Below are positions 1 to 24,000 of a stretch of DNA of 24,000 nt, piece by piece (within the stretch, counting starts at the first letter, position 1; each line of letters starts with the position of its first letter). Source of the stretch: Acidianus brierleyi (GTDB lineage Archaea; Thermoproteota; Thermoprotei_A; Sulfolobales; Sulfolobaceae). Position numbers and translations under genes: made by a program. The stretch spans positions 2,510,378 to 2,534,377 of the forward strand of contig NZ_CP029289.2 in NCBI RefSeq assembly GCF_003201835.2, written 5' to 3'. The notes below the pieces were generated by a model that did no database searches, was not told where the DNA came from, and was given only the letters and a program-made list of their open reading frames with translations.

Positions 1-165
1 TGCTCCTGTCGGTTCGACCACTATTGTGTTTAGTTTCACTTTTAGTATTTCTTCATAACCCTTCTTGTTGTTCTCGTAGACCCTCCCCTCACTCGTTACT
101 AGATGATCTTTTGATATGTCTATTCCTAGGATCCCTACCTCTTTATCACACCTATATCCGTGCAT
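1..165 (-). CDS. IS110-family (DEDD-type) transposase/recombinase, N-terminal 55 codons only; the CDS runs off the left edge of the window
   Basis: Absent from the ORF track because it is short. Reverse-strand translation from ATG at 165-163 is open to position 1: MHGYRCDKEVGILGIDISKDHLVTSEGRVYENNKKGYEEILKVKLNTIVVEPTGA. The GIDxSK...hhhhE(A/P)TG pattern is the characteristic N-terminus of the IS110 DEDD domain (compare IS621 GIDTAKEKL...CIEATGTY). Confidence 0.75.
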   Translation of the reverse strand, partial: MHGYRCDKEVGILGIDISKDHLVTSEGRVYENNKKGYEEILKVKLNTIVVEPTGA

Positions 166-294
166 ATTATCACAATGTTCAGTCCGATAGTAGGGATTTG
201 TCACGCCCCCTCTCGAAGACTTTGCTTCAGTCAAAGGGTCGACCATGTTTCCCAGTTGGAGAGTATTACTCTCCCCAACTAATTAATCTATATA
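166..294 (-). ncRNA. 5' non-coding leader directly upstream of the IS110-family recombinase; candidate bridge-RNA-type region (extent uncertain)
   Basis: No plausible ORF. Contains an imperfect hairpin, agttgg(gg)agagt / actctccaact (about 258-284), and other short stems. IS110-group elements are known to encode their guide (bridge) RNA in the non-coding end upstream of the recombinase. Boundaries and transcription are not shown by the sequence alone. Confidence 0.3.
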
Positions 295-1012
295 GGTTCA
301 AAGGGGGCGGAAGACTCCATCCGTAAGGGTGGAGATGAATAGGCTCCACATGCTTCGCCTCTAACATGGCTAGGCGATAGCTTGAAGAGCCGAGGAAACC
401 ACTCGATAGAGGTTAACTTTAGGATCTTCACTTTGTATGTGTAATACTCTTTTTCTAATTCTTGAATTTTTCTATAATACGCGTTGTATTGTTAATTTTG
501 TTAGGAGATAGTGCGAACTAACTATGAGAACGTCCCCTTAAATTTTTGCACACTCCTACTCGGGATGTTGTCCCACATGTTAGATCGCGGGGGACGTATA
601 GCCAGCCTCCCACATGGGGTTTTATCCCCATGCCCACTTTCGGCTTGTGTTATTTTCTTGTTCTCTTTATAAAAGTTTTACTCTTGTAAGGCTTGTCTTC
701 TTGTTTAGGAGTGTTGTTCGTGAAAATCGCCGTAGGAGCCCCCTTTGTAGTTACATTTAAATACGTATTTTTCAAATATTCTCTTAATGGCAGTCACTGA
801 CGGAGTAAGCGTCACTGAGACGCCTTGGTTAAAGCGAGGGTCTATGTGGTACGCCTCTGCTCCATTCAACAGTCCCATATTGGGATACTGTGGGTTCACA
901 TTAGTGCTCGGGGTCGGAACGACCCTTAGTGCCTGTGGAGCTGAGACCTCTACCTTTGGCAAGCCTCGGCTTTGAAGCAGGAAGCCACGTCCGTTAGGGC
1001 GGAGTAGTTCAC
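295..1012 (-). repeat. GC-rich structured repeat, composite copy A: B-type interior (738-1003) plus C-type interior (341-737) plus shared 3' hairpin module (295-340)
   Basis: Read on the minus strand it starts GTGAACTAC (1012-1004) and ends ...CCCCCTTTGAACC (to 295). Positions 738-1012 are near-identical to 5203-5480 over about 250 nt; ORF-track peptides are identical on both strands. The ends of 341-737 match 9311-9493 (about 57 nt each side, 1-2 mismatches). Markedly more GC-rich than flanking DNA. Confidence 0.85.
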
Positions 1013-1883
1013 CATTGCCGCAATACCCCCAATTATACTTCTATTATTAAGAAGAAAAATGCCAGAGAGTATCAGATGGGCCGCCGAAGTAGGGAATAAG
1101 AAAAAAGTAGAGGAAGCCGTAAAGAGACTGGAGAAATGTGGCTTAGAACCTGAGGTTAATTTTGACGCAATTCAAGAAGACAAACCTACATTAAAGCAAA
1201 ATCTCAAAGCATTCTTCAGTAGGACATATGCTAGACAAGTAGCCTTCATTTTCTGGATTGGTGCAGCATACGCTTTGACAGTCAACTTAGTTTCAGTATA
1301 CTCTAGTAAGGTTCTCTCAGATTTAGGAGCTTCGTCCTTTGAATCCCTATTAGGTACTCTGAGTATAGATATTTTAGGAACTTTTGGAGTTTTAATAACA
1401 GTATTTGCGGCGGACAAATTAGGGAGAAAGGTCCTAGGCACACTAGGTTTTGGACTTTCTGCAATTCCATTGGCGGTACTTTACGTGGCCTATTTGATGG
1501 GTTTCCTATCGATTCCTTTAGTAGTAGCAATGTTCTCATTATTCTTCCTTATAAATGTAGGATTTGTAGGTACTTTACAATACGTTCCAGCAGGAGAAGT
1601 ATTTCCTACAAGATTAAGGGGACTATCAGTAGGTTGGGAGAAATTATTCGAATTCGGTTTAGCTTTGCCAGCATTGTCGTTGTATGCATTTCTAGGAGTA
1701 GCGAATTCATTACTTTATGATATAATAGTTGCAATAATTGCAGCAGCAATATATTACTTCCTCTCGTTAGAAACTAAACAAATGCCATTAGAAGAGATAC
1801 AAAGAAGATATACTGGAAATGAAGGAATACCTAGCTTTGCATTAAAAGACATAGCAAGAAGCAAGGATAAGGATAAGTTATAA
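1008..1883 (+). pseudogene. MFS sugar-porter-type transporter, C-terminal half only; truncated by the insertion ending at 1012
   Basis: ORF 1059-1883 begins MPESIRW (the PESPRW-like loop motif after TM6 of sugar porters), followed by about 6 hydrophobic segments. The frame is open upstream to 1008 (FTIAAIPPIILLLLRRK, TM6-like) and breaks exactly at the repeat terminus (1004-1012). No N-terminal half is present in the window. Confidence 0.7.
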
Positions 1884-1917
1884 ACTTTTTATATCTTTTT
1901 ACGTTTTATTTAACATT

Positions 1918-3012
1918 TTATATCAAGATTATTAAAAGAGATAATAAAGGGCCTATTATTAAACTATCTATTGCTAGCATGGGACTTCCTATGGATATTA
2001 CTATGCCCACAAATAAAGGCGCTATCATAGATCCTATCTGAGATATGGCATTAGCAAACCCCATGGAAGTTCCAGCGTTTTCTTTCCCCATTATTTTTAC
2101 GACTATTGAATCTGTAGGAGGTCTATACATAAAGGAAGATATTCCAAGTATAACACTGATTGGTATAAGGAGATACAGATCTCTTGTAAATGATATAATA
2201 ATTATTGAAATAATAAAGAGAATTAATGAGGTTTTAACTAGTTTAATATCCTCCATAATTCTCGAAAGTCTTTCTGAGAGTATTATAGAAAGCACTTGGC
2301 CTATTGCGTATAATATAAATAGAATTTCGGAAAGTTTTTCAGGTACATTATCGTAGAGGACTAAAAAGGGAAATAGCCACGACGACGTTCCCCATGTACC
2401 CCATAACTCTCCAGCTCTTATAATCGAGACCTTACCTACTCTCTTATTTAGTATAACTTTTCTAGCACTCTCTGATTTACCAGATTTAACATTAAGAAAT
2501 AACGATAAAAAAGACGTCAATATTAATCCTATGAATATACAGATATAGAAAAATTTCCAATAAATTAATATTATTCCAGAAAGAGTAGCTAAAATAAGTA
2601 AAACTATTGGAGCTGAACTTTCTAAGAGAGCTAAATATGGTGTTAATGGTCTTTCCAACAATGAAACTATTTTTACTGATGATGGGAAAAGTCCTGCTGT
2701 TAAAAGACCTTCAATAAAATACAATAAGTAAAGTTCATATATACTTTTTATAAATATGAAAAATGGTATAAAAATTCCTGAAAGTAATGCTGAAATAAAT
2801 ATTGATTTTTTTGGTCCTACCTTATCTATAAATATACCCCATAATATTGAACTACTTACGTAACCTACATAAAAAAGAAAGAGTACTGTTCCTATTTCAA
2901 CTGAAGTCATACGAAGAACGTAAGCAAAAGTTACTGCAACAACTCCCCAACTTAATCTTAAGGCTAATTGAAGAAAGGTTGCGGTCCAGCTTAAACCTAA
3001 AGAAAATCTCAT
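1918..3012 (-). CDS. MFS-type transporter (multi-pass membrane protein)
   Basis: 364 aa, hydrophobic throughout with about 10-12 predicted TM segments. Contains the MFS loop-like motif GIFIDKVGPKKS between TM2 and TM3. Confidence 0.8.
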   Translation of the reverse strand: MRFSLGLSWTATFLQLALRLSWGVVAVTFAYVLRMTSVEIGTVLFLFYVGYVSSSILWGIFIDKVGPKKSIFISALLSGIFIPFFIFIKSIYELYLLYFIEGLLTAGLFPSSVKIVSLLERPLTPYLALLESSAPIVLLILATLSGIILIYWKFFYICIFIGLILTSFLSLFLNVKSGKSESARKVILNKRVGKVSIIRAGELWGTWGTSSWLFPFLVLYDNVPEKLSEILFILYAIGQVLSIILSERLSRIMEDIKLVKTSLILFIISIIIISFTRDLYLLIPISVILGISSFMYRPPTDSIVVKIMGKENAGTSMGFANAISQIGSMIAPLFVGIVISIGSPMLAIDSLIIGPLLSLLIILI

Positions 3013-3423
3013 AAAAAATGAGTAGAATGAAGATTTTTAAATTTGTTTAAAGTTGGAAATACTTTGAAATGAAACATTAAGTTTTAGAACAAAACTTCTA
3101 ATGTATTACAAAAAATGGTAAAAAGGTATTCGATCAACTAATTTTTCATTAATACTCTCATCTTCTAAATACTTTTTATGAATATATGAATTTAACAGTA
3201 TAAATATTCATTAACGCTTACTTTTAGTAGGATAGTCTTTAAAAATTTTAAGATGAGATAAGTAACTAAAATTTTCTAGCGAACTCGTATGAAAAATTAT
3301 AAAGTTAACATTCTCAATATGCTAATTGAAAAAACATAAATAATCATTATTTAGTCTTTGAGATATAGATTCAGTTATTAAAACAGACAATGTAGACTAA
3401 AAGTATAAATATATGTAGATTTA

Positions 3424-3783
3424 ATGTATTATATGCAAACATGTCCCATGTGTGGAGCAAATCTGGTAGAAGGTTTAAGTTATTGTCAAGTATGTGGAGC
3501 AGACGTTAGTATATACGATCAAATATACCAGAGCATTCAAGGAGTTTCTCCATTTCAATCTCCAGGAAATCAACAAAATTTCCAACAACAAGACTTTTCA
3601 CAGCAAGGTTTTCAACAGCAGAATTTCCCGCAACAAGACTTTCAGCAGAATTTCCAACAACAAAATCCCCAGTATCAGCAAGGAATTCCTTGTCCTAACT
3701 GCGGTTTTATGAATCCACCAGACGCTAAAGTTTGTGGAAATTGCGGACAAGAATTAAAAAAACACCATCATCATTTCTTCTAA
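3424..3783 (+). CDS. Double zinc-ribbon protein with a central Q/N/F-rich low-complexity linker and a C-terminal HHHHFF tail
   Basis: CPMCGANLVEGLSYCQVCG and CPNCGFMNPPDAKVCGNCG form two CxxC...CxxC ribbons. The linker is QQNFQQQDFSQQGFQQQNFPQQDFQQNFQQQNPQYQQ. An alternative start is ATG at 3433. Confidence 0.75.
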   Translation: MYYMQTCPMCGANLVEGLSYCQVCGADVSIYDQIYQSIQGVSPFQSPGNQQNFQQQDFSQQGFQQQNFPQQDFQQNFQQQNPQYQQGIPCPNCGFMNPPDAKVCGNCGQELKKHHHHFF

Positions 3784-3814
3784 ATTTTTATATTTGAACT
3801 CACTTTTTATTAAT

Positions 3815-4549
3815 ATGCCAGAATACAGAATTCTTGGTTACGATATGCAACATGTAAGAGTATATTTAAACCAAGGTGAAATGGTTTACGGAGACGGAGG
3901 GCATTTAGTAGCAAAATCTCCTTCTATTCAAGTTAATTATGCAGCTCAAGGAGGAATAATAAAATCTTTTGAAAGAGAACTTACTGGCAGTAGATTCTTT
4001 ATAATGCAAATAATAGGACCTGGGGTAGCAGAATTTTCTTCTTTTCTTCCAGGAAGAGTAGTAAAAGTAGATCTTCAAGGTAATGGAATAAGAGTAGAGC
4101 ATAATTCTTTCCTTTTTGCAGAACAGGGAATTCAATATACAGCGGCATTAGATAAAATAACTGTAGGATGGTTAGGAGGAGAAGGATTACTGATGGAGCA
4201 TTTTACTGGACAGGGATCTGTATTTATCCATGCTTTAGGAGGAGTTAGCAGTTACGTTTTAAATCAAGGTGAAGAAATGGAATTTGAGGCCGGACATGTA
4301 TTAGCCTTCGATGATAATATGCAATATTCAATAACGAGGGCAGGAGGAATAAAAACAATGCTTTTTGGAGGACTTGAAAAGGAGGGAATGTTCTTTGTAA
4401 AACTTACTGGACCAGGTAGAGTATGGTTACATAACGTATCATTAGAACAGTTGATCTCTAAATTAAGATTAGTCGGTGGAGGCGGTGGTGGAGGTCCATC
4501 TCAAGGAACTCCTGACATAAATATTGGAGGATTCAACATAAATATATAA
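3815..4549 (+). CDS. AIM24 / TIGR00266 (DUF124) family protein with a C-terminal poly-Gly tail
   Basis: From MPEYRILGYDMQHVRVYLNQGEMVYGDGGHLVA through GGEGLLMEHFTGQGSVFIHALGG to GMFFVKLTGPGRVWLH matches the repeated beta-sheet signature of AIM24/DUF124. ATG at 3815 is preferred over the track's TTG at 3794. It lies 31 nt downstream of the zinc-ribbon gene. Confidence 0.85.
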   Translation: MPEYRILGYDMQHVRVYLNQGEMVYGDGGHLVAKSPSIQVNYAAQGGIIKSFERELTGSRFFIMQIIGPGVAEFSSFLPGRVVKVDLQGNGIRVEHNSFLFAEQGIQYTAALDKITVGWLGGEGLLMEHFTGQGSVFIHALGGVSSYVLNQGEEMEFEAGHVLAFDDNMQYSITRAGGIKTMLFGGLEKEGMFFVKLTGPGRVWLHNVSLEQLISKLRLVGGGGGGGPSQGTPDINIGGFNINI

Positions 4550-4561
4550 AAAATTATCTCT

Positions 4562-5086
4562 TTATGTTTTTATTTTATCAGGAAAATATTTTAGGAATTT
4601 AGTAATCTTTGGATCTATTATCACTCTACAATAAGGATAATTTCTATGCTTATCGTAAAAGTTATGATGATAATCCTCTGCCTCATAAAAAGCTTCAAAA
4701 GGCACAACTTCCGTAACTACTTTTTTCCCTATTTTCTTTTCTACTTCTCTTATTATTTCCTCTGCAATTTTTCTTTGCTCGTCATTATGATATAATATTA
4801 TAGATCTATATTGTGAACCAACATCGTTACCTTGCCTGTTTGGAGTTGTAGGATCGTGAATAGAGAAGAAAATTTCCAAAATATCTCTAAAAGAAATAAT
4901 ATTAGGATCAAAAGTAATTTGGACTACTTCAGCATGTCCCGTTTTGTCCGTACATACATCCTCGTACGTTGGATTAGGCACTTTTCCTCCAGAATATCCT
5001 GGTTTAACCTCAATCACTCCCTTAACTCTAGAAAAAACTGCTTCAGTGCACCAGAAACATCCTCCGCCTAATGTTGCTTTTTCCAT
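4562..5086 (-). CDS. msrA: Peptide-methionine (S)-S-oxide reductase
   Basis: N-terminal [12 protein letters not shown] active-site motif, plus [32 protein letters not shown] and [19 protein letters not shown], all canonical MsrA blocks. Confidence 0.95.
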
Positions 5087-5202
5087 GAAAGATATATGAA
5101 GTAGCTAAAATTTAACTTAGTGTTAGAAAATTTAAAATAGTTGTTTTGAAAAGATTTACTATAAACCTTTGATGAAGTTTTTGGAAAACGAATATTGTTA
5201 TC

Positions 5203-5540
5203 GTGAACTACCATGCCCTAACGGGCGTGGCTTCCTGCTTCAAAGCCGAGGCTTGCCAAAGGTAGAGGTCTCAGCTCCACAGGCACTAAGGGTCGTTCCG
5301 ACCCCGAGCACTAATGTGAACCCACAGTATCCCAATATGGGACTGTTGAATGGAGCAGAGGCGTACCACATAGACCCTCGCTTTAACCAAGGCGTCTCAG
5401 TGACGCTTACTCCGTCAGTGACTGCCATTAAGAGAATATTTGAAAAATACGTATTTAAATGTAACCACAAAGGGGGCAATCCATCTCCACCCTTACGGAT
5501 GGAGTCTTCCACCCCCTTTGAACCCCTTGTTCAGATAAAA
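5203..5540 (+). repeat. GC-rich structured repeat, copy B (simple form: 5' GTGAACTAC, B-type interior, 3' hairpin CAAAGGGGG...CCCCCTTTG, tail GAACCCCTTGTTCAGATAAAA)
   Basis: Near-identical to the reverse complement of 738-1012. Dense local stems are visible: ccatgccc/gggcgtgg, gggtcg/cgaccc, gcgtc/gacgc and caaaggggg/ccccctttg. ORFs are open on both strands, with a composition unlike the local proteome. Confidence 0.85.
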
Positions 5541-5610: not shown

Positions 5611-6798
5611 ATGAGTGAGGATTTAATCAAGGCGCTAATCAACAACGACGAATTCAATAAGAAGATAGCTAGTATAGTCTATGAAAAAATTAGAAACGAT
5701 GTTATATTGAATAAATTTGATGATATATATAAAATATTAAATGAGCTAACTAAATCTGTCCAAAAGAACACTGATCATATAATCCTTATATGGGAGAAAA
5801 TGGATCAAACTGATAAGACTATTAATAACATTATACAATCAATTAAGGATAACACTAACGCTATAAAGGAGATGCAAAATGAGGTAAGAACGTTAAATAT
5901 TACAACACAAAAACATACTGAAGCTATAGAGTCTCTTCAGAAAAATATTGATTCACATACGAAAGCAATAGAGACAATGCAGAAAACGTTAGAAAAGCAC
6001 AGTGAAATCATCGAAACACATACGAAAGCAATAGAGACAATGCAGAAAACGTTAGAAAAGCACAGTGAAATCATCGAAACACATACGAAAGCAATAGAGA
6101 CAATGCAGAAAACGTTAGAAAAGCACAGTGAAATCATCGAAACACATACGAAAGCAATAGAGACAATGCAGAAAACGTTAGAAAAGCACAGTGAAATCAT
6201 CGAAACACATACGAAAGCAATAGAGACAATGCAGAAAACGTTAGAAAAGCACAGTGAAATCATCGAAACACATACGAAAGCAATAGAGACAATGCAGAAA
6301 ACGTTAGAAAAGCACAGTGAAATCATCGAAACACATACGAAAGCAATAGAAGAACAATCTAAGGCAATAGAGAAGTTACAAAATGCGATTTTTAGACTAA
6401 GTACAGAGATAGGTGCGTTTACTAATAGAGCAGGTAAAGGTCTAGAGAAAAGTATAATGAATATATATAGAGAAGCGTTAAAATTACATGGTATAGATCC
6501 TTCTAACGTTAAACATGGTAAAATAAAGGATACCCTAGGAATAATAGATAAGGATAAGGAGTTTGAAGTAGACTTTTATGAGACCGATGATTACGTCTAT
6601 GTTTTTGAAGTTAAGAACTATGCAGATGAGGGAGTTTTAGAACAAATGAGAAATAGAATTAAATTGTTTTCCGCATTATATAAAAAGCCTATAAAATTCT
6701 ATATTATATCTAACTTTATAGAAAAATCTGTAAAAGAAGAAGCAGAAAAAGAAGCAGCAATAATTATTACATCTCATGTTGTAGAAGACGAAGCATAA
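5611..6798 (+). CDS. Coiled-coil protein with a 21-aa tandem-repeat array and a C-terminal PD-(D/E)XK-like domain (resembles the archaeal DUF3782 + PDDEXK_10 architecture)
   Basis: 395 aa. The N-terminal two thirds are heptad-like (KAIETMQKTLEKHSEIIETHT x6). The C-terminus, EFEVDFYETDDYVYVFEVKNYA...KFYIISNFIEKSVKEEAEKEAAIIIT, fits a D...(D/E)xK nuclease-fold core. The family assignment is from memory only. Confidence 0.7.
   Translation: MSEDLIKALINNDEFNKKIASIVYEKIRNDVILNKFDDIYKILNELTKSVQKNTDHIILIWEKMDQTDKTINNIIQSIKDNTNAIKEMQNEVRTLNITTQKHTEAIESLQKNIDSHTKAIETMQKTLEKHSEIIETHTKAIETMQKTLEKHSEIIETHTKAIETMQKTLEKHSEIIETHTKAIETMQKTLEKHSEIIETHTKAIETMQKTLEKHSEIIETHTKAIETMQKTLEKHSEIIETHTKAIEEQSKAIEKLQNAIFRLSTEIGAFTNRAGKGLEKSIMNIYREALKLHGIDPSNVKHGKIKDTLGIIDKDKEFEVDFYETDDYVYVFEVKNYADEGVLEQMRNRIKLFSALYKKPIKFYIISNFIEKSVKEEAEKEAAIIITSHVVEDEA
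5954..6350 (+). repeat. Perfect 63-bp tandem repeat, 6.3 copies, in frame inside the 5611-6798 CDS
   Basis: Units start at 5954, 6017, 6080, 6143, 6206, 6269 and 6332 (partial, 19 nt). Each encodes HTKAIETMQKTLEKHSEIIET. The antisense ORF 5937-6326 also repeats exactly, which indicates nucleotide identity between units. Confidence 0.95.
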
Positions 6799-9301: not shown

Positions 9302-9550
9302 GTGAACTCCTCCTACGGCGATTTTCACGAACAACACTCCTAAACAAGAAGACAAGCTTTACAAGAGTGAGACTAAGAAGACTAGGTATAGGGGAGGAGG
9401 TGGTGAAGGCCCTCAAGTTGACCCCAATCAAGTAGTTCCTTCGGCTCTTCAAGCTATCGCCTAGCCATGTTAGAGGCAAAGCATGTGGAGCCTATCCATC
9501 TCCACGGATGGAGTCTTTCGCCTCGTTTGAACCCCCTGTTAAGATAAAAA
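9302..9550 (+). repeat. GC-rich structured repeat, copy C (5' GTGAACTCC, C-type interior 9311-9493, shared 3' hairpin module, tail GAACCCCCTGTTAAGATAAAA)
   Basis: The first and last ~57 nt of the 9311-9493 interior match the reverse complement of the corresponding ends of 341-737, and the 3' module 9494-9535 matches 295-340. The middle differs (about 68 nt here versus about 280 nt in copy A). The 3' module also matches 5481-5526. Confidence 0.85.
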
Positions 9551-11799: not shown

Positions 11800-12308
11800 G
11801 TTCAGAGATTTTATATTCTTCTGGATTTTATATAATTTATTCTATTTCAATAATTACTTTATTAATATCTTCATTTCTAAATTATGTACAGGAAGAAGTT
11901 GAAGGTTTTGAAAATTTTATGATTTTATTAGCACTATTTTTCCCTTATGTCTTCTTCGTATTGAGGGGAAAAATTTTCAGTTTTTTACCATTATATTTAA
12001 TTATAAGCCCTTATTATCATAATATTACATTTAGTTACTATATTAATGAACTAATACCTACAGCAGTATATTATTTTGGAGTACTCCCAAGATTTGTGAA
12101 CTACAACGTAAGGTTGATGAGTATAGTTTGGGGAATAATTTTAATTGCAGATTCTTTATCTGGATTTATTGATTTGACTCCTTTATTACTTGGACTATCT
12201 ATTCTTGTAAATAAGGAATCAACATATAATTATAAATTGTTTTTATTAATTACCATAGTGTTAATAATTTCAGCTACGTTATTTAAAATATTTATTCTAC
12301 AGTATTAA
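11733..12308 (+). CDS. Multi-pass membrane domain (track ORF 11919-12308); the frame is open back to 11733 with no start codon
   Basis: This frame reads VLPQFFAIISFILLIISSEILYSSGFYIIYSISIITLLISSFL before the first ATG (11919), giving extra TM-like segments. It overlaps the end of the ArsR frame by 67 nt. Confidence 0.5.
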   Translation, partial: QKFLRKVLPQFFAIISFILLIISSEILYSSGFYIIYSISIITLLISSFLNYVQEEVEGFENFMILLALFFPYVFFVLRGKIFSFLPLYLIISPYYHNITFSYYINELIPTAVYYFGVLPRFVNYNVRLMSIVWGIILIADSLSGFIDLTPLLLGLSILVNKESTYNYKLFLLITIVLIISATLFKIFILQY

Positions 12309-18926: not shown

Positions 18927-19262
18927 CCCAGTCTCATAAGGGGATACTGTAGGCTCACTGCTCGGAGTCGGAACGATCCTCATTGTCTTTGTAGAAATAT
19001 AAAAAATCTAATATGGTACTTGGAAATTTATAAAAATTATCATATAATTATCTAACTAATTACATTAAATCTTTACGAACCACTAATAACAAATAAAAAT
19101 TATTTTTACTAATTAGATTTTGGGTCTACCGTAACCAAGGCGGTGACGCTTACTCCGTCAGTGACTGCCATTAAGAGAATATTCGAAAAAAGAAGTATTA
19201 AGCCTTACAAAGGGGGCTATCTATCTCCACGGAGTCTTCCGCTCCCTTTGAACCCCTGATCA
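18927..19262. repeat. GC-rich structured repeat, copy D: decayed and rearranged (18927-18985 in minus orientation, 19131-19262 in plus orientation, AT-rich filler between)
   Basis: 18927-18985 matches the reverse complement of 5290-5350 with many substitutions. 19131-19262 matches 5384-5535, including the 3' hairpin (caaaggggg...ccctttgaacccctg), but has a 5-nt deletion relative to copy B (ggcgTCTCAgtgacgc versus ggcggtgacgc). Confidence 0.6.
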
Positions 19263-19358
19263 TAATAAAGTCTTATAGTGCAAACTTACAAGATTTTTGG
19301 CTCTTTACAGACAATATTCAACGAACAAAATTTAATATATGGATTTTTTATATCACTT

Positions 19359-21557
19359 ATGAAAGCTTACAAGATAATTTTTTCTGGTATAGTTCAAGGT
19401 GTAGGATTCAGGCCATTTATTTATAGAATAGCTGTTAAATCAGGAGTAAGAGGATACGTAAGGAATTTAGGAGGAAGCGAAGTAGAAGTCAAGATTGTAG
19501 GAAAAGAAGAAAATATAGCAGAATTCATGTCATTATTTTTCTTAAAATTACCTTCTCCTGCAAAAATAGAAAAAATTATAGTAGAAGATAGTGAAATAGA
19601 GAATTTTAAGGAATTCCAGATTTTAAAGAGCGGGAGCACAATTAAGGAAGTTGGAGAAATACCTCCGGACTTATCAGTATGTGACGAATGCATGAAGGAA
19701 GTTTTAAACGAAAAAGACAGACATTACATGTATCCATTTAATAGTTGCGCATACTGCGGACCAAAGTTTTCAATAATATATAAGTTACCCTACGATAGAG
19801 AAAACACTTCCATGAAAGATTTTCCTATGTGTTCTTCTTGTCAGAAAGAATATGAAGATCCGGAAAACGAAAGAAGATTTGACGCTCAAGGAATAAGCTG
19901 TCCAATTTGTGGACCTAAATTATTTCTCGAAGATATTAAAGGAGAAAGAATAGAAGGAGATCCTATAGCCCTTACTGCAAAGCTCATAGAAGAAGGAAAA
20001 ATAGTAGCAATTAAAGGCATTGGAGGATTCCACATAGCTATAGATCCGTTTAACGATGATGTAATTATAAGACTAAGAGAAAGAAAAAAGAGACCACAAC
20101 AACCTTTTGCCCTCATGGCAATCTCTACTGATGTCATAAAGAAATACGCAGAAGTGTCGGAAATAGAAGAAGAAATTCTACGTTCGCCGGAAAGACCAAT
20201 ATTACTACTCAAAAAAAGAGAATCAATTTCAAAATACATTTCCCCAGGATTGGACAGAGATGGATTTTTCCTTTATTATACTCCTCTACATTATCTCCTC
20301 CTCAACTCTCTGAAGAATAAAATTTCAGTGATGACAAGCGGAAATATTCACGGCTTACCTATGTGCATTGACGAAGAATGTGTTAAAGATAAATTGAAAG
20401 ACGTTGTGGATTACGTACTTTACCATAATAGGAAAATTGTTCACAGAGTTGACGATAGCGTAATGAGGATCTCATCACGAAGGATAATTATGTTACGAAG
20501 AAGTAGAGGATTTGCACCTACATGGATAAGAATAAAGAAGAAGGTGGAGCCAACAATAGCTTTAGGAGCAGAACTTCAAAACACTGGAGCAATAGCTTTT
20601 GACGATAAGGTTATACTCACACCTTATGTTGGAGATACTGACAAACTGGAAAACTTAGAAGAAATGGAAAACAGTATAAGGTTCCTTTTAAATACCTATT
20701 CAATAAAACCTAAATATGTAATAGCAGATAAAAATCCAGCTTATCAAAGCCTCAGACTAGCTAAAAAATTTTCAGAAGAATTTTCGGCTGAATTTTATCA
20801 AGTTCAGCACCATTTTGCTCATGGGTTAAGCGTAGCTGCAGAAAAAGGAGTAGATGAGGGAGTAATAATAGCTATAGACGGAATAGGTTATGGAGACGAT
20901 GGAAACGGTTGGGGAGGTGAGATAATAAAATTTGAAGGAAGTAAATATTCAAGAGAATATCACTTAAGGTATGTTAATTACGCAGGAGGAGACATAAACG
21001 CAAAGAAGCCCGATAGAATGTTAGCTTTATTCCTATCTAATTTCCTTTCGTGGGAAGAAATAAAAAAACATGTAAAACTATCTGAAAAAGAAATAAAAAT
21101 CCTAGAAATGCAATCAAAAAAATCGTCATTGTATACCTCAAGTGTTGGAAGATTTCTTGACGCAGTTTCGGCATTTTTAGATGTTTGCCATGAAAGAACA
21201 TATGAAGGAGAACCTGCAATAAAACTTGAGGCGATGAAAGGAAGAATATTAGATTTCGATTTCCCTATAAAAGGAGAAGAAATAGACACAATAGAAGCGT
21301 TCAAATGGTTTTTAAACAATAATTTAAGGAAAGAGGATATTGCTACAACCCTACAATATAAGCTAGGAGAAGCATTAGTTAATGCTGCCGAGAGACTGAA
21401 TCCGGAAAGAATCTTAGTTTCCGGAGGAGCTTCAGTAAACGAATATATATTAAAAGGTATATTAGACAACGCAAAAGCGGAAGTGTTAACGCTCAGTAAA
21501 GTTCCACCAGGAGACGGCGGAATATCTTTAGGTCAAAGTTACTTTAAAGTGTTGTAA
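19359..21557 (+). CDS. hypF: [NiFe]-hydrogenase maturation carbamoyltransferase HypF
   Basis: Acylphosphatase domain ([19 protein letters not shown]). Two zinc-finger pairs (CDECMKEV...CAYCGPKFS; CSSCQKEY...CPICGPKL). YrdC-like block ([16 protein letters not shown]), then a Kae1/HypF C-terminal block ([21 protein letters not shown]). ATG 19359 is preferred over the track's GTG 19278. Confidence 0.95.
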
Positions 21558-21574
21558 TATTCTATCGGATATAT

Positions 21575-24000
21575 CTTTCAATTCCTTTTTGGATGAAACT
21601 CCACTTTTTCGTAATTTCTCATAAAGCATTTAAAGATTTCTTTCAATTCCTTTTTGGATGAAACCCCGGCGAAGAGCCCTTGCTGGGCTCTCCCGGGTAC
21701 GAGGACTTTCAATTCCTTTTTGGATGAAACGTAGTTTAGGCGTAGAGTTGGAGGGCGTTATGCCCTACTTTCAATTCCTTTTTGGATGAAACTGCGTTGG
21801 TATGCAGAAATATTGCCTATAGTTACCGAAGACTTTCAATTCCTTTTTGGATGAAACAAATATTCAAACTGATAACGGCGGAATATATTTAGCTTACTCT
21901 TTCAATTCCTTTTTGGATGAAACGTATGGTATTATCAAATGGTGAAAAAAATGGGAAACGAAACCTTTCAATTCCTTTTTGGATAAAACTTGAGGACTTC
22001 CAGGGGGGATATTACTATATCCCCTACAACTTTCAATTCCTTCTTGGATAAAACTTATTCAACACCTGCAGCAAGGTATCCAGCTAATTCAACTTTCAAT
22101 TCCTTCTTGGATGAAACAAAAGGTCTAATTCAAAGAAAGAGCGTAAAGGATATCATAAACTTTCAATTCCTTCTTGGATGAAACATTGTAAATGGGTTTA
22201 GCCCAAGCATGTTAAGTCAAAATTCCTTTCAATTCCTTCTTGGATGAAACTTATGAGTTTAAGAGAGACGCCATAAGGAAGCTAATGGAAAAATACTTTC
22301 AATTCCTTCTTGGATGAAACAATGAATAAGTATGTGACAAACGGGTTCAGCCCGAGTATGATACTTTCAATTCCTTCTTGGATGAAACATACTATACGTA
22401 TCGTATGACGACGGGTTTGAAAAAGACTTCTTTCAATTCCTTCTTGGATGAAACACATGATGAATATGAACCGTTTGCAAGCGCTAAATTAGAAATCTTT
22501 CAATTCCTTCTTGGATGAAACCTGAGGTTATTGTCTTAAAACTTAATGATTTTGATAAGATAACTTTCAATTCCTTCTTGGATGAAACTTCTTCTCCTCC
22601 GACATGTCTCATTCACCTCTCATATTTAACACTTTCAATTCCTTCTTGGATGAAACCTGTTTATTTCTTTTAATTCCAATAGATTTTTTGTACTGATTCT
22701 TTCAATTCCTTCTTGGATGAAACCATTTAAATATTAGTTAGGTCTTAATGTAACATGATAAACACTTTCAATTCCTTCTTGGATGAAACAAGTGATGGCA
22801 AGGGAAGGCACAAAAATGATGAGTATTGACTTTCAATTCCTTCTTGGATGAAACCTTATATCATTCGGCTGTTCCTCTGGGGTCTATAGAAAAACCTTTC
22901 AATTCCTTCTTGGATGAAACTACAATACGGTTCATTACCAGACGCGTTAATAAAATCACTTTCAATTCCTTCTTGGATGAAACTCAAAATAAGTCAAATT
23001 TAGATCAACAATTAAATCAAATTTTCTTTCAATTCCTTCTTGGATGAAACTAAAATCAAGGGGGGAAATATGGTTGAGTTTAACAAAGCGGCTTTCAATT
23101 CCTTCTTGGATGAAACATATCGATTTGTCACATAAGAATTTTGACTTTTTAACTTTCAATTCCTTCTTGGATGAAACGTCCCTAAGTGAATTACTTAGGG
23201 ACATAGTGTTTGAATATATCTTTCAATTCCTTCTTGGATGAAACTTCCCAAAGAATGCCAATGGGTGGCGGAGCTGGAAAAAATTCTTTCAATTCCTTCT
23301 TGGATGAAACATAAATTCATTAACTACCGTAACCGTTGGGCAATATATAACTGCCTTTCAATTCCTTCTTGGATGAAACCTTAAAGAAATTGCAAATTGG
23401 GTTGGGGCAAGATCATTTAGCTTTCAATTCCTTCTTGGATGAAACATAATGACATACTAGTAATAGTGTACCCAAGTCTGCATGATATCTTTCAATTCCT
23501 TCTTGGATGAAACCTACTGAGCTCGAAAGTTTTGGGTGTGCCTCTGGGGTCTATCTTTCAATTCCTTCTTGGATGAAACAGTAAGGACTTACAGTGCGGA
23601 AACCGGGAAACCGGTGGCCTTTCAATTCCTTCTTGGATGAAACTTGCTACCTTCATTTGTGAGCCACCTCAACGACAATTATTTCTTTCAATTCCTTCTT
23701 GGATGAAACAGGAGGACTATAAACGCACTATATATTGACGTTGTAATGATCTTTCAATTCCTTCTTGGATGAAACACAAAAAGGGATGGAGGTTTTTTTA
23801 CAACCTCCTAAAAAAGACTTTCAATTCCTTCTTGGATGAAACTCTTCTGCTTCCATAAAATCATATCCAGCAAAAAGTTTTCGCTTTCAATTCCTTCTTG
23901 GATGAAACAGAAAAATTAAAGATAAAATTAGCTAAAGAATAATAAATCTTTCAATTCCTTCTTGGATGAAACCTATTTAGTGTCACAATGCAACGACTGG
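21575..24000 (-). CRISPR. CRISPR array, 37 repeats of 25 nt in the window (it continues past 24000), spacers 36-45 nt. Transcribed-strand repeat is GTTTCATCCAAGAAGGAATTGAAAG
   Basis: Repeats start at 21575, 21640, 21706, 21768, 21833, 21899, 21965, 22030, 22093, 22160, 22226, 22296, 22364, 22430, 22497, 22564, 22632, 22699, 22765, 22830, 22896, 22959, 23026, 23092, 23153, 23220, 23286, 23355, 23421, 23489, 23555, 23619, 23685, 23751, 23818, 23884 and 23948. The minus-strand reading ends in ATTGAAAG, the known 8-nt crRNA 5' handle source in Sulfolobales. Variant repeats at the 21575 end mark the trailer. Confidence 0.98.

Follow-up and report, generated by a model that had tools for sequence, protein, structure and literature searches.

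Several described mobile elements bear on the repeat family examined here, which lies in a 24,000-nucleotide stretch of Acidianus brierleyi DNA (contig NZ_CP029289.2, positions 2,510,378 to 2,534,377; this whole stretch is called the window below). SMN1, as cited in PMC3718332, is a 320-bp non-autonomous element of S. islandicus that is mobilised by ISC1733, an element of the insertion sequence (IS) family IS200/IS605. The IS605-type TnpB elements of S. islandicus have an invariant right-end (RE) motif TTCAC, carry the guide directly after UUCAC and use the target-adjacent motif TTTAA (PMC11043419). In the IS110 family, ISC1229 and other elements of Saccharolobus and Sulfolobus are mostly partial, decaying copies (PMC10883916); the guide rules applied below come from IS621, in whose RNA the 5′ strand of the first loop reads as left flank plus core (PMC11208160). 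IS110 elements also occur at repeated structured DNA, IS621 at repetitive extragenic palindromic (REP) sequences and ISPpu10 at a target hairpin that it requires (bioRxiv 2026.03.19.712850), and half-match recombination has been reported for them (bioRxiv 2026.08.31.748434). The window repeats had been described, in a reading made from the sequence alone, as hairpin cassettes with constant ends and interchangeable or nested interiors. The pattern itself was borne out, its interpretation in part. Our analysis makes it quite probable that they are TnpB-type transposon derivatives invaded at CT dinucleotide cores by a bridge-RNA-guided IS110-family element (IS110 #1), with a second element of that kind (IS110 #2) lodged in the left end (LE) of one copy.

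The window holds four copies, A to D. The module pattern GGAGTCTTYCRCYYCSTTTGAACC occurs four times against 0.00 expected, at 295-318 (-), 5501, 9510 and 19231, and the last site belongs to the fourth, decayed copy D. The 9-nt start, the 3′ module and the other pieces described by the sequence-only reading were all recovered in place. Copies A and B share 278 nt at 98% identity (738-1015 and 5200-5477), and copies A and C share 65 nt at 95% (674-738 and 9310-9374) and 103 nt at 88% (329-431 and 9403-9505). Copy B (5203..5540, +) is an intact 338-nt copy with the type-1 interior; it starts with GTGAACTACC at 5203, reads CAAAGGGGG-CA-ATCCATC at 5468-5485, where no insertion has occurred, and closes with the module and a terminus ending in GATAAAA at 5540. 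Copy A has a type-1 body at 739..1012 (-), from the terminus GTGAACTAC (1012-1004) up to CAAAGGGGG (747-739), which is 97% identical to a Metallosphaera copy (locus L001), then the type-2 interior at 343..736 (-) and the module ATTCATCTCCACCCTTACGGATGGAGTCTTCCGCCCCCTTTGAACC at 295..340 (-). As had been stated, type 2 in copy A sits exactly between CAAAGGGGGC and ATTCATCTCC, and in copy C (9302..9548, +) it directly follows the 9-mer. The description of the copies as ending with the module needs correcting: in B, C and D the element end lies about 16 nt farther out. These three and nearly all of about 80 related copies extend for those roughly 16 nt past TTTGAACC (as CCTTGTTAAGATAAA), whereas copy A lacks the outer tail and has TATATAGATT in its place, where another element abuts.

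Relatives of the family were collected by scanning species-representative genomes and metagenomes with the module pattern; the metagenome scan gave 82 loci, which were then oriented and classified. Among the species representatives, Metallosphaera yellowstonensis was the sole match, with three module loci, two of which are type-1 copies 96-97% identical to those of the window. A plasmid search yielded one useful full-length element, on pHGQ25 of S. tengchongensis, and no match to the module family was found in a phage collection or in three viral-contig scans. The copies in the window, in M. yellowstonensis and in many hot-spring metagenomes have differing flanks and are 84-98% identical. The closest relatives of the window's genes and elements are in Sulfolobales genomes and hot-spring metagenomes.

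Judged by its ends and its coding remnants, the family is a non-autonomous derivative, that is, a miniature inverted-repeat transposable element (MITE) of about 338 nt, of a TnpB-only IS200/IS605-family transposon. The generic hairpin repeat envisaged before thus gives way to a set of copies whose ends are the termini of a TnpB-type IS200/IS605 transposon derivative. The earlier orientation, which we keep for the coordinates, runs opposite to tnpB: the supposed 5′ 9-mer is the RE terminus, the supposed 3′ module is the LE, and the tnpB orientation of copy A is the + strand. Reverse-complemented, GTGAAC gives the TTCAC motif of the right end. Read along tnpB, the order is a TTTAT-like target, the LE with its subterminal hairpin, the interior, the RE hairpin and TAGTTCAC, with which every copy ends.

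The parent could be recognised from its coding sequence. At the Metallosphaera locus L003, the module lies immediately 5′ of a tnpB start codon, and the 403-aa open reading frame (ORF) on the opposite strand matches PF01385 OrfB_IS605 (1.2e-18), PF07282 Cas12f1-like TNB (7.7e-20) and NF040570 guided_TnpB (248.8 bits against a cut-off of 100). Similar ORFs were present in L014, L024, L039, L059, L065 and L073, and the layout of module followed by tnpB was also seen on plasmid pHGQ25 and at more than 15 metagenome loci. Furthermore, type 1 begins with 105 nt that match the 3′ end of 400-430-aa tnpB ORFs at more than 15 loci, and tblastn with the last part of type 1 returned the TnpB C-terminal tail (E=9e-19). 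Type 1 is thus composed of the LE and start region, a middle of about 170 nt, and the last ~105 nt of tnpB with the RE.

In tnpB orientation, CTCCATCC-GTAA-GGGTGGAG forms the LE hairpin, within a longer stem of AAAGGGGG/CCCCCTTT, and CCACGCCC-GTTA-GGGCATGG forms the RE hairpin, after which comes TAGTTCAC. Both are similar 8-bp hairpins with GTWA loops and both appear in the predicted fold; there are no terminal inverted repeats. When about 40 distinct flanks are compared, the conserved sequence ends after GATAA(A), equivalent to (T)TTATC, at the LE and exactly at GTGAAC at the RE. No direct repeats were seen flanking the MITE, and no true empty MITE site was recovered, so that target and terminus are inseparable at these limits. 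At L021, L056/L087 and L029/L046, mini-elements of about 70 nt have the RE hairpin arm fused to the LE arm through the GTWA loop, a rearrangement route distinct from the CT-core junctions described below. The 9-mer GTGAACTMC also occurs at 12096, 13168 and 13595, in unrelated AT-rich coding sequence, and two of these sites share GTGAACTCCTTAA.TTTT; the three were rejected as family members, having no other similarity to it, and were judged chance matches. Because of them, the 9-mer alone is not diagnostic.

By published description, the MITE resembles SMN1 in size class (about 320-338 bp), in having no protein gene, in its IS200/IS605-type parent and in its Sulfolobales host; it differs in that its parent encodes TnpB only. 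It is probably a distinct family, because the module pattern is absent from all Sulfolobus and Saccharolobus species representatives. With S. islandicus TnpB7 (PMC11043419) it shares an RE that ends in TTCAC, a T-rich pentanucleotide on the LE side (TTTAT here, TTTAA there) and a guide-RNA scaffold, putative in the present family, that overlaps the 3′ end of tnpB; in contrast to the ~150 nt of scaffold required in S. islandicus, type 1 keeps about 105 nt of recognisable 3′ tnpB and RE.

The type-2 interior proved to be of another nature. It is identifiable as an IS110-family, bridge-RNA-guided element of about 1.5 kb in full length, IS110 #1, because locus L054 has recombinase ORFs within type-2 ends and intact homologues exist elsewhere. 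In L054, a 1.5-kb element lies between GTGAA-CT and CT-ATCCATCTCC; its first 323 nt are 96% identical to type 2 of copy A and its last ~134 nt are those of copy C. The frameshifted ORFs inside match DEDD_Tnp_IS110 (2.4e-11) and Transposase_20 (7.5e-12), and P0018, an intact homologue of 383 aa with 98% identity, reaches 254.9 bits with the NCBIfam model NF033542 ("IS110 family RNA-guided transposase") and has a structural match in the IS621 transposase 8wt6 (E=2e-15). Type 2 is therefore no interchangeable cassette, as had been proposed, but an IS110 element in the form of deletion derivatives. That type 2 might be a second TnpB-derived MITE with the same ends had also been considered, and was rejected on the IS110 ORFs found inside the type-2 ends of L054.

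The remnants differ in what they keep. In copy A, the LE CCTACGGCG and the entire 5′ non-coding region (about 320 nt) are joined to the last ~110 nt, which end in GCATGTGGAGC; both ends of IS110 #1 and the whole bridge RNA are kept, and the recombinase gene alone is gone. Copy C reads GTGAA-CT-CCT, followed by the remnant at 9312-9491, a CT at 9492-9493 and a short-loop LE module with its terminus. This remnant consists of 64 nt of LE and the last ~134 nt, with a deletion junction at the microhomology TACAAG(A/G)GT; its 3′ part is the C-terminal coding end and RE of the recombinase gene of L054/L094, and copy C has neither the bridge RNA nor the type-1 interior. L022, L030 and L036 retain about 62 nt of the IS110 #1 RE only. 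Compared with the ISC1229 group (PMC10883916), IS110 #1 belongs to the same family and host order, and many copies are likewise truncated or internally deleted. That work, however, covers neither bridge RNAs nor target sites, whereas the remnants described here lie at one defined site in another transposon, and one of them keeps the entire RNA.

IS110 #1 has no inverted repeats, and a CT core stands at both junctions and once in the empty site. In copy A, where the cores are at 738-737 and 342-341, the junctions read GGGGG-CT-[CCTACGG...GTGGAGC]-CT-ATTCATC, with the CT duplicated relative to the uninserted GGGGG-CT-ATCCATC; in L054 they read GTGAA-CT-[...]-CT-ATCCATC, compared with the empty GTGAA-CT-ATCCATC of L020. 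Two sites can thus be defined. Site L is AAAGGGGG-CT-ATCCATC, with its CT core 8 nt from the LE hairpin and with the uninserted stretch of copy B as an example; site R is GTGAA-CT-ACCCC, with the CT within the RE terminus of the TnpB element. In L094/L105, the same RE of IS110 #1 is joined to CT-ACCCCGCCC, which is site R.

To map the junction, a check proposed beforehand, 90 module occurrences were classed by their state at the CT. The site-L CT was uninserted in 54 modules (39 distinct flanks), whereas in 11 modules (9 distinct flanks) the RE of IS110 #1 stood exactly at it, all reading GGAGC-CT-ATCCATC. L020 was the one empty fused site (GTGAA-CT-ATCCATC, one flank); five modules (3 flanks) were RE/LE hairpin-loop hybrids, nine (6 flanks) were too short, at contig ends, and the other ten (9 flanks) included three unrelated chance matches and L037. 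The solo left end of L037 and the fused mini-site of L020 break at the same CT as the insertions. Arbitrary breakpoints were not found in this census, and the identical junction in 11 modules with 9 flanks bears out the proposal of site-specific nested insertion at a fixed junction over random decay. The accompanying suggestion that an IS110-family element was responsible was likewise upheld, the guide in its 5′ RNA matching the left flank, as detailed next.

The 5′ non-coding region of IS110 #1 is predicted to form a two-loop bridge RNA. Its relatives in S. tokodaii, S. shibatae, S. islandicus and S. tengchongensis are 51-56% identical, and the 5′ regions align well. An RNAalifold consensus of seven sequences from five elements gave two stem-loops, each with an internal loop; of its 29 pairs, three have compensatory changes and most are invariant, so covariation support is thin. 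In copy A, the bridge RNA was placed at 518..650 (-) by this consensus and by the guide/flank matches. It comprises the left target guide GAAAGUGGGC (641-632, -), the inner hairpin CAUGGGG-AUAAAA-CCCCAUG (632-613, -), the right-target-guide position GUGGGAG (613-607, -), the outer stem of the donor loop ACGUCCCC/GGGGACGU (597-590 and 537-530, -), the right donor guide GUAGGAG (within 561-551, -) and a closing stem AGCC/GGCU (within 518..650, -). The two stems that had been pointed out in the core of copy A, catgggg-ataaaa-ccccatg (613-632) and acgtcccc/ggggacgt (590-597 and 530-537), are present; the former is the inner hairpin in the first loop, and the latter is the second loop's outer stem. 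An internal TATA-like box, TTTTATAAAG at 674-665 (-), seems to act as the promoter, rather than a promoter formed across an RE-LE joint.

The 5′ strand of the first loop was then compared with the left flank of its own element. The pairs are GAAAGUGGGC and CAAAGGGGGC/T in copy A, GAAAGUGAAC and xGTGAAC/T in L054 and L106, CAACCACACU and TCCACACT in S. tokodaii, and CAUGUCCUCC and CTGTCCTCC/T in S. shibatae. Matches to the own flank numbered 8/9 in A, 7-8/9 in L054, 7/9 in S. tokodaii and 8/9 in S. shibatae, with lower values off the diagonal. For most copies, the longest common substring between flank and whole untranslated-region RNA is not significant alone, and the test is informative only as a comparison at a fixed position. 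Over the element's first 300 nt, two substitutions are all that separates copy A from L054, GG versus AA at positions 103-104; both lie inside the left target guide, and each fits its own flank, GGGGGC versus GTGAAC. The right donor guide matched 7/7 in all five elements: GUAGGAG is the reverse complement of CT+CCTAC in IS110 #1, S. shibatae, S. islandicus and S. tengchongensis, and S. tokodaii has GUGGGAG, the reverse complement of CT+CCCAC, a matching change. Right target guide matches were found in S. tokodaii (AUAAG, 5 nt), S. shibatae (CAAAAG, 6 nt) and S. tengchongensis (GUACAAG, 7 nt). These comparisons suggest that targeting is at least partly RNA-guided, through the 10-nt left target guide.

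In these respects IS110 #1 resembles IS621 (PMC11208160; PMC11208158): it has a DEDD and Transposase_20 recombinase, a CT core duplicated at both junctions, and a 5′ non-coding RNA with two internal loops, in which the 5′ strand of the first loop is in left-flank sense and the 3′ strand of the second is complementary to the core and the LE start. It differs in that its host is archaeal and no Rfam model matches. As with ISPpu10 and IS621 at REP sequences, insertion occurs beside a hairpin in a multi-copy sequence, and, as in half-match recombination, one half of the target loop alone appears to be used for recognition; here, however, the multi-copy target is the end of another RNA-guided transposon. 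A further case was seen in S. tengchongensis CP146016 (L104, ~880-2400), where a relative of IS110 #1 lies inside a tnpB gene, adjoined by a truncated 235-aa Cas12f1-like_TNB ORF, and where the right target guide GUACAAG fully matches the right flank CT-TGTAC. From this case, it seems that the IS110 lineage in question has targeted TnpB elements repeatedly.

The recombinase fragment beside copy A (ORF 246->1) had been proposed as the source of type 2. It belongs instead to a second, unrelated IS110-like element, IS110 #2 (1..294, -), which runs off the window and, as its guide indicates, was probably directed by its own RNA into the outer part of copy A's LE, immediately after TTTGAACC. Its LE starts with TATATAGATTAATTAG (294-279), and the boundary at 294/295 was set by three different left flanks. 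The consensus structure has a 5′ stem-loop (279-255, -) and two loop-bearing stem-loops. In the target loop, the 9-mer ACCCUUUGA (239-231, -) matches the abutting module sequence CCCTTTGA; it is followed by a hairpin (230-214, -) and the 3′ loop (213-205, -), and the donor-loop guide AUAUAGG (157-151, -) is the reverse complement of CC+TATAT, the core and LE start. The 9-nt guide was compared with the own flank of each copy, CCCTTTGA in the window, GAGGGAAAC in L088/L090 and CGTGA(G/A)TTC in L089, giving 8-9 of 9 matches on the diagonal and at most 4 off it. The recombinase probably starts near the ATG at 165 (MHGYRCDKEVGILGIDISK), and the annotated N-terminus MVDPL... of ORF 246->1 is a translation of the IS110 #2 RNA. 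The 82-aa fragment of this recombinase in the window has no Pfam match, and homologues of the ORF are short and without domains. With the homologue P0001, IS110 models of NCBIfam give alignments starting at residue 64 (4.6e-8 and 3.7e-5); these stay under the cut-off, since no known copy is longer than 143 aa.

Taken together, IS110 #1 would insert at the CT core of site L and at the CT of site R of the TnpB-type MITE; insertion between joined-CT flanks (GTGAA and ATCCATC) would give the architecture of copy C and L054; and IS110 #2 would have entered the outer part of copy A's LE via its own guide. The identities of the elements, their junctions, the RNA structure, the guide/flank matches and a polymorphism between strains are shown by the comparisons; that the bridge RNA is transcribed and that there is activity in trans we infer, as we do the sequence in which events took place and the way in which the interior was deleted.

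Several observations weigh against this account. For the MITE, no TnpB homology was found in the middle ~170 nt of type 1, which have no detected origin, and the loci examined showed no tnpA next to their tnpB genes. For IS110 #1, the window has no intact recombinase gene and the copy in L054 is frameshifted, and a single left junction at site L is available, that of copy A, the metagenome contigs breaking at repeats. GUGGGAG at the right-target-guide position pairs with the core alone at site L (CT-ATCCA, 2/7) and suits the element's own LE start better, so that, in a further difference from IS621, the right target guide misfits the site and site L does not show canonical two-sided recognition. 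Nor was a left donor guide found, as no segment tracks the RE end in any of the family members; CAUGUGG in IS110 #1 was tried in this role and rejected, being a near-match without covariation in relatives. The register of guide and core is offset by 1 nt between IS110 #1/S. shibatae and S. tokodaii, the S. islandicus copies have no left-flank match and the S. tengchongensis copy has one of 5 nt only. In IS110 #2, the distance from the guide match to the junction differs by 1-3 nt from copy to copy. Lastly, copy C has an extra CCT between core and LE start (CT-CCT-CCTACGG, 9309-9314), which is absent in L054 and L004. The extra CCT varies among copies of one element (L095 versus L096; L101) and may reflect use of a second CT within CCTACGG, or slippage.

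How the form without a type-1 interior, seen in copy C, L054 and L004, arose allows more than one answer. IS110 #1 may have entered a pre-existing mini-element in which RE and LE were already fused, or site R may have recombined with site L within a full type-1 copy; we hold this pair of routes to be a little short of an even chance. L020 speaks for independent insertion, being an unoccupied GTGAA-CT-ATCCATCTCCACGGGTGGAG mini-element with the short-loop LE variant shared by C, L054, L077 and L020 itself, and so does the left target guide GAAAGUGAAC of L054 and L106, which fits the GTGAA left flank; the mini-element itself, however, still requires an origin. For recombination, joining the two CT sites of the MITE gives GTGAA-CT-ATCCATC, the sequence of L020, and GGAT-AG-TTCAC, the junction in the mini-element, is precisely what a join of the two cores should yield. 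L004, which is 99.6% identical to window positions 1000-4712, also speaks for recombination: it reads CGGCAATGGTGAA-CT-CCTACGGCG (...GGTGAA-CT-) at the copy-A locus, without the type-1 interior that the window has there; the rest of L004 is unassembled. The strain comparison called for earlier thus did reveal a polymorphism, and both architectures are therefore allelic in related strains. A bolder proposal is that type 2 of copy A is a functional orphan element without a recombinase, which still expresses a complete bridge RNA, had its left target guide retargeted by 2 nt from the RE terminus to the LE foot, is mobilised in trans by the recombinase of other copies and, through recombination at the two CT sites, deletes or swaps the MITE interior. 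We regard this as possible but unlikely.

Explanations that dispense with IS110 activity fare worse. Cassette exchange by ordinary homologous recombination or gene conversion between copies with conserved ends could draw on the shared ends of 46-65 nt, and the hybrid mini-elements L021, L056 and L029/L046, with their hairpin-loop junctions, do indicate that rearrangements not due to IS110 occur; but the type-2 sequence is that of an IS110 element that carries a recombinase gene, it is bounded by a duplicated CT of 2 nt and not by homologous stretches, and the guide in its RNA matches the flank, which leaves this explanation improbable. The GC content of the repeats, short islands of about 55% in a window of about 30%, and the fold z-scores of copy B (-4.65 on the strand of the earlier reading and -3.95 on the tnpB strand) could be taken as signs of genes for a structured cellular RNA with a variable domain. 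Strong folding of both strands is nevertheless expected for hairpin-rich transposon ends with a guide-RNA scaffold, and any RNA role is more likely that of the transposon's own scaffold. Rfam gave nothing relevant, either at the gathering threshold over the whole window or at E<=10 over 200-1100, and a tRNA scan of the window was empty; the sequence is common to TnpB gene ends; and the near-identical Metallosphaera copies (L001/L002) imply spread between genera, unlike host RNA genes. We accordingly give a cellular RNA very little credence. Segmental duplication of one locus followed by random decay has the least to recommend it: copy D is indeed heavily decayed and rearranged, but the flanks of the copies are unrelated, both within the window and in a second genus and dozens of metagenome contigs, the breakpoints are fixed, and full-length autonomous relatives exist. 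The TnpB-type MITE invaded at CT cores by IS110 #1 thus remains the reading that we prefer.

Copy D (18929..19269, +) is a decayed type-1 copy in which 18929-18994 is inverted relative to the remainder. It contains an AT-rich insert ending in the terminal repeat GATTTTGGGTCTACC (19116-19130), followed by the 3′ part of type 1 and an LE module with a shortened hairpin. In L058, GATTTTGGGTCTACC occurs as an inverted pair around an AT-rich insert of about 380 nt, in the loop of a hybrid RE/LE hairpin, and in L002 a single such end adjoins the C-terminus of a transposase. Copy D seems to have been disrupted by part of a different element, and the hairpin loops of TnpB elements seem to be the target of a third kind of element.

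As for the surroundings of the copies, the ORF at 1059-1883 (Pfam Sugar_tr) starts at a PESIRW motif, which is normally mid-protein in sugar porters of the major facilitator superfamily. It looks like the C-terminal half of a transporter gene interrupted by the cluster of copy A and IS110 #2. Extension of the window to the left via a window protein led only to a 3.7-kb contig that ends at repeats. The ORF at 5611-6798 (395 aa) contains seven tandem 63-nt units at 5879-6445, up to 97% identical, which encode the 21-aa repeat HTKAIETMQKTLEKHSEIIET. A CRISPR array of at least 37 repeats (CTTTCAATTCCTTCTTGGATGAAAC) with a spacing of about 61-70 nt extends from 21575 to 24000, directly follows a HypF-like ORF (19278-21557) and runs off the right end of the window. 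The repeat is of Sulfolobales type, the first repeats (~21575-21990) are the variant CCTTTTTGG, which makes this the probable trailer end, and the window contains no cas genes.

The components of this locus all belong to kinds already known: a TnpB MITE of the IS200/IS605 family, and bridge-RNA elements of the IS110 family together with remnants of them. New are the families themselves, the fact that the ends of a TnpB transposon are targeted by two IS110 elements, a guide altered by two nucleotides from one site to the other, and a remnant that has lost the recombinase but keeps a whole bridge RNA; together they would illustrate, with unusual clarity, how in nature one RNA-guided mobile element targets another. 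GC-rich "modular" repeats of AT-rich Sulfolobales genomes can be resolved into nested known elements, and ORF calls at the 5′ ends of IS110 genes can be spurious translations of bridge RNA, as in the MVDPL... case. The comparisons are evidence, at the level of sequence, that archaeal IS110 elements share the two-loop bridge-RNA logic of IS621, and they point to a natural retargeting of a guide, in which two point changes separate the versions for two sites that lie a few hundred bases from each other. An insertion site that appears to be read by one half of the target loop, beside a DNA hairpin, bears on half-match and structure-gated bridge recombination. By landing in TnpB-transposon ends, the two IS110 elements would inactivate their host transposon and spare host genes, and if the remnant in copy A is indeed an orphan element, an RNA-guided mobile element would here, in nature, have come to specialise on a second one and to remodel it.

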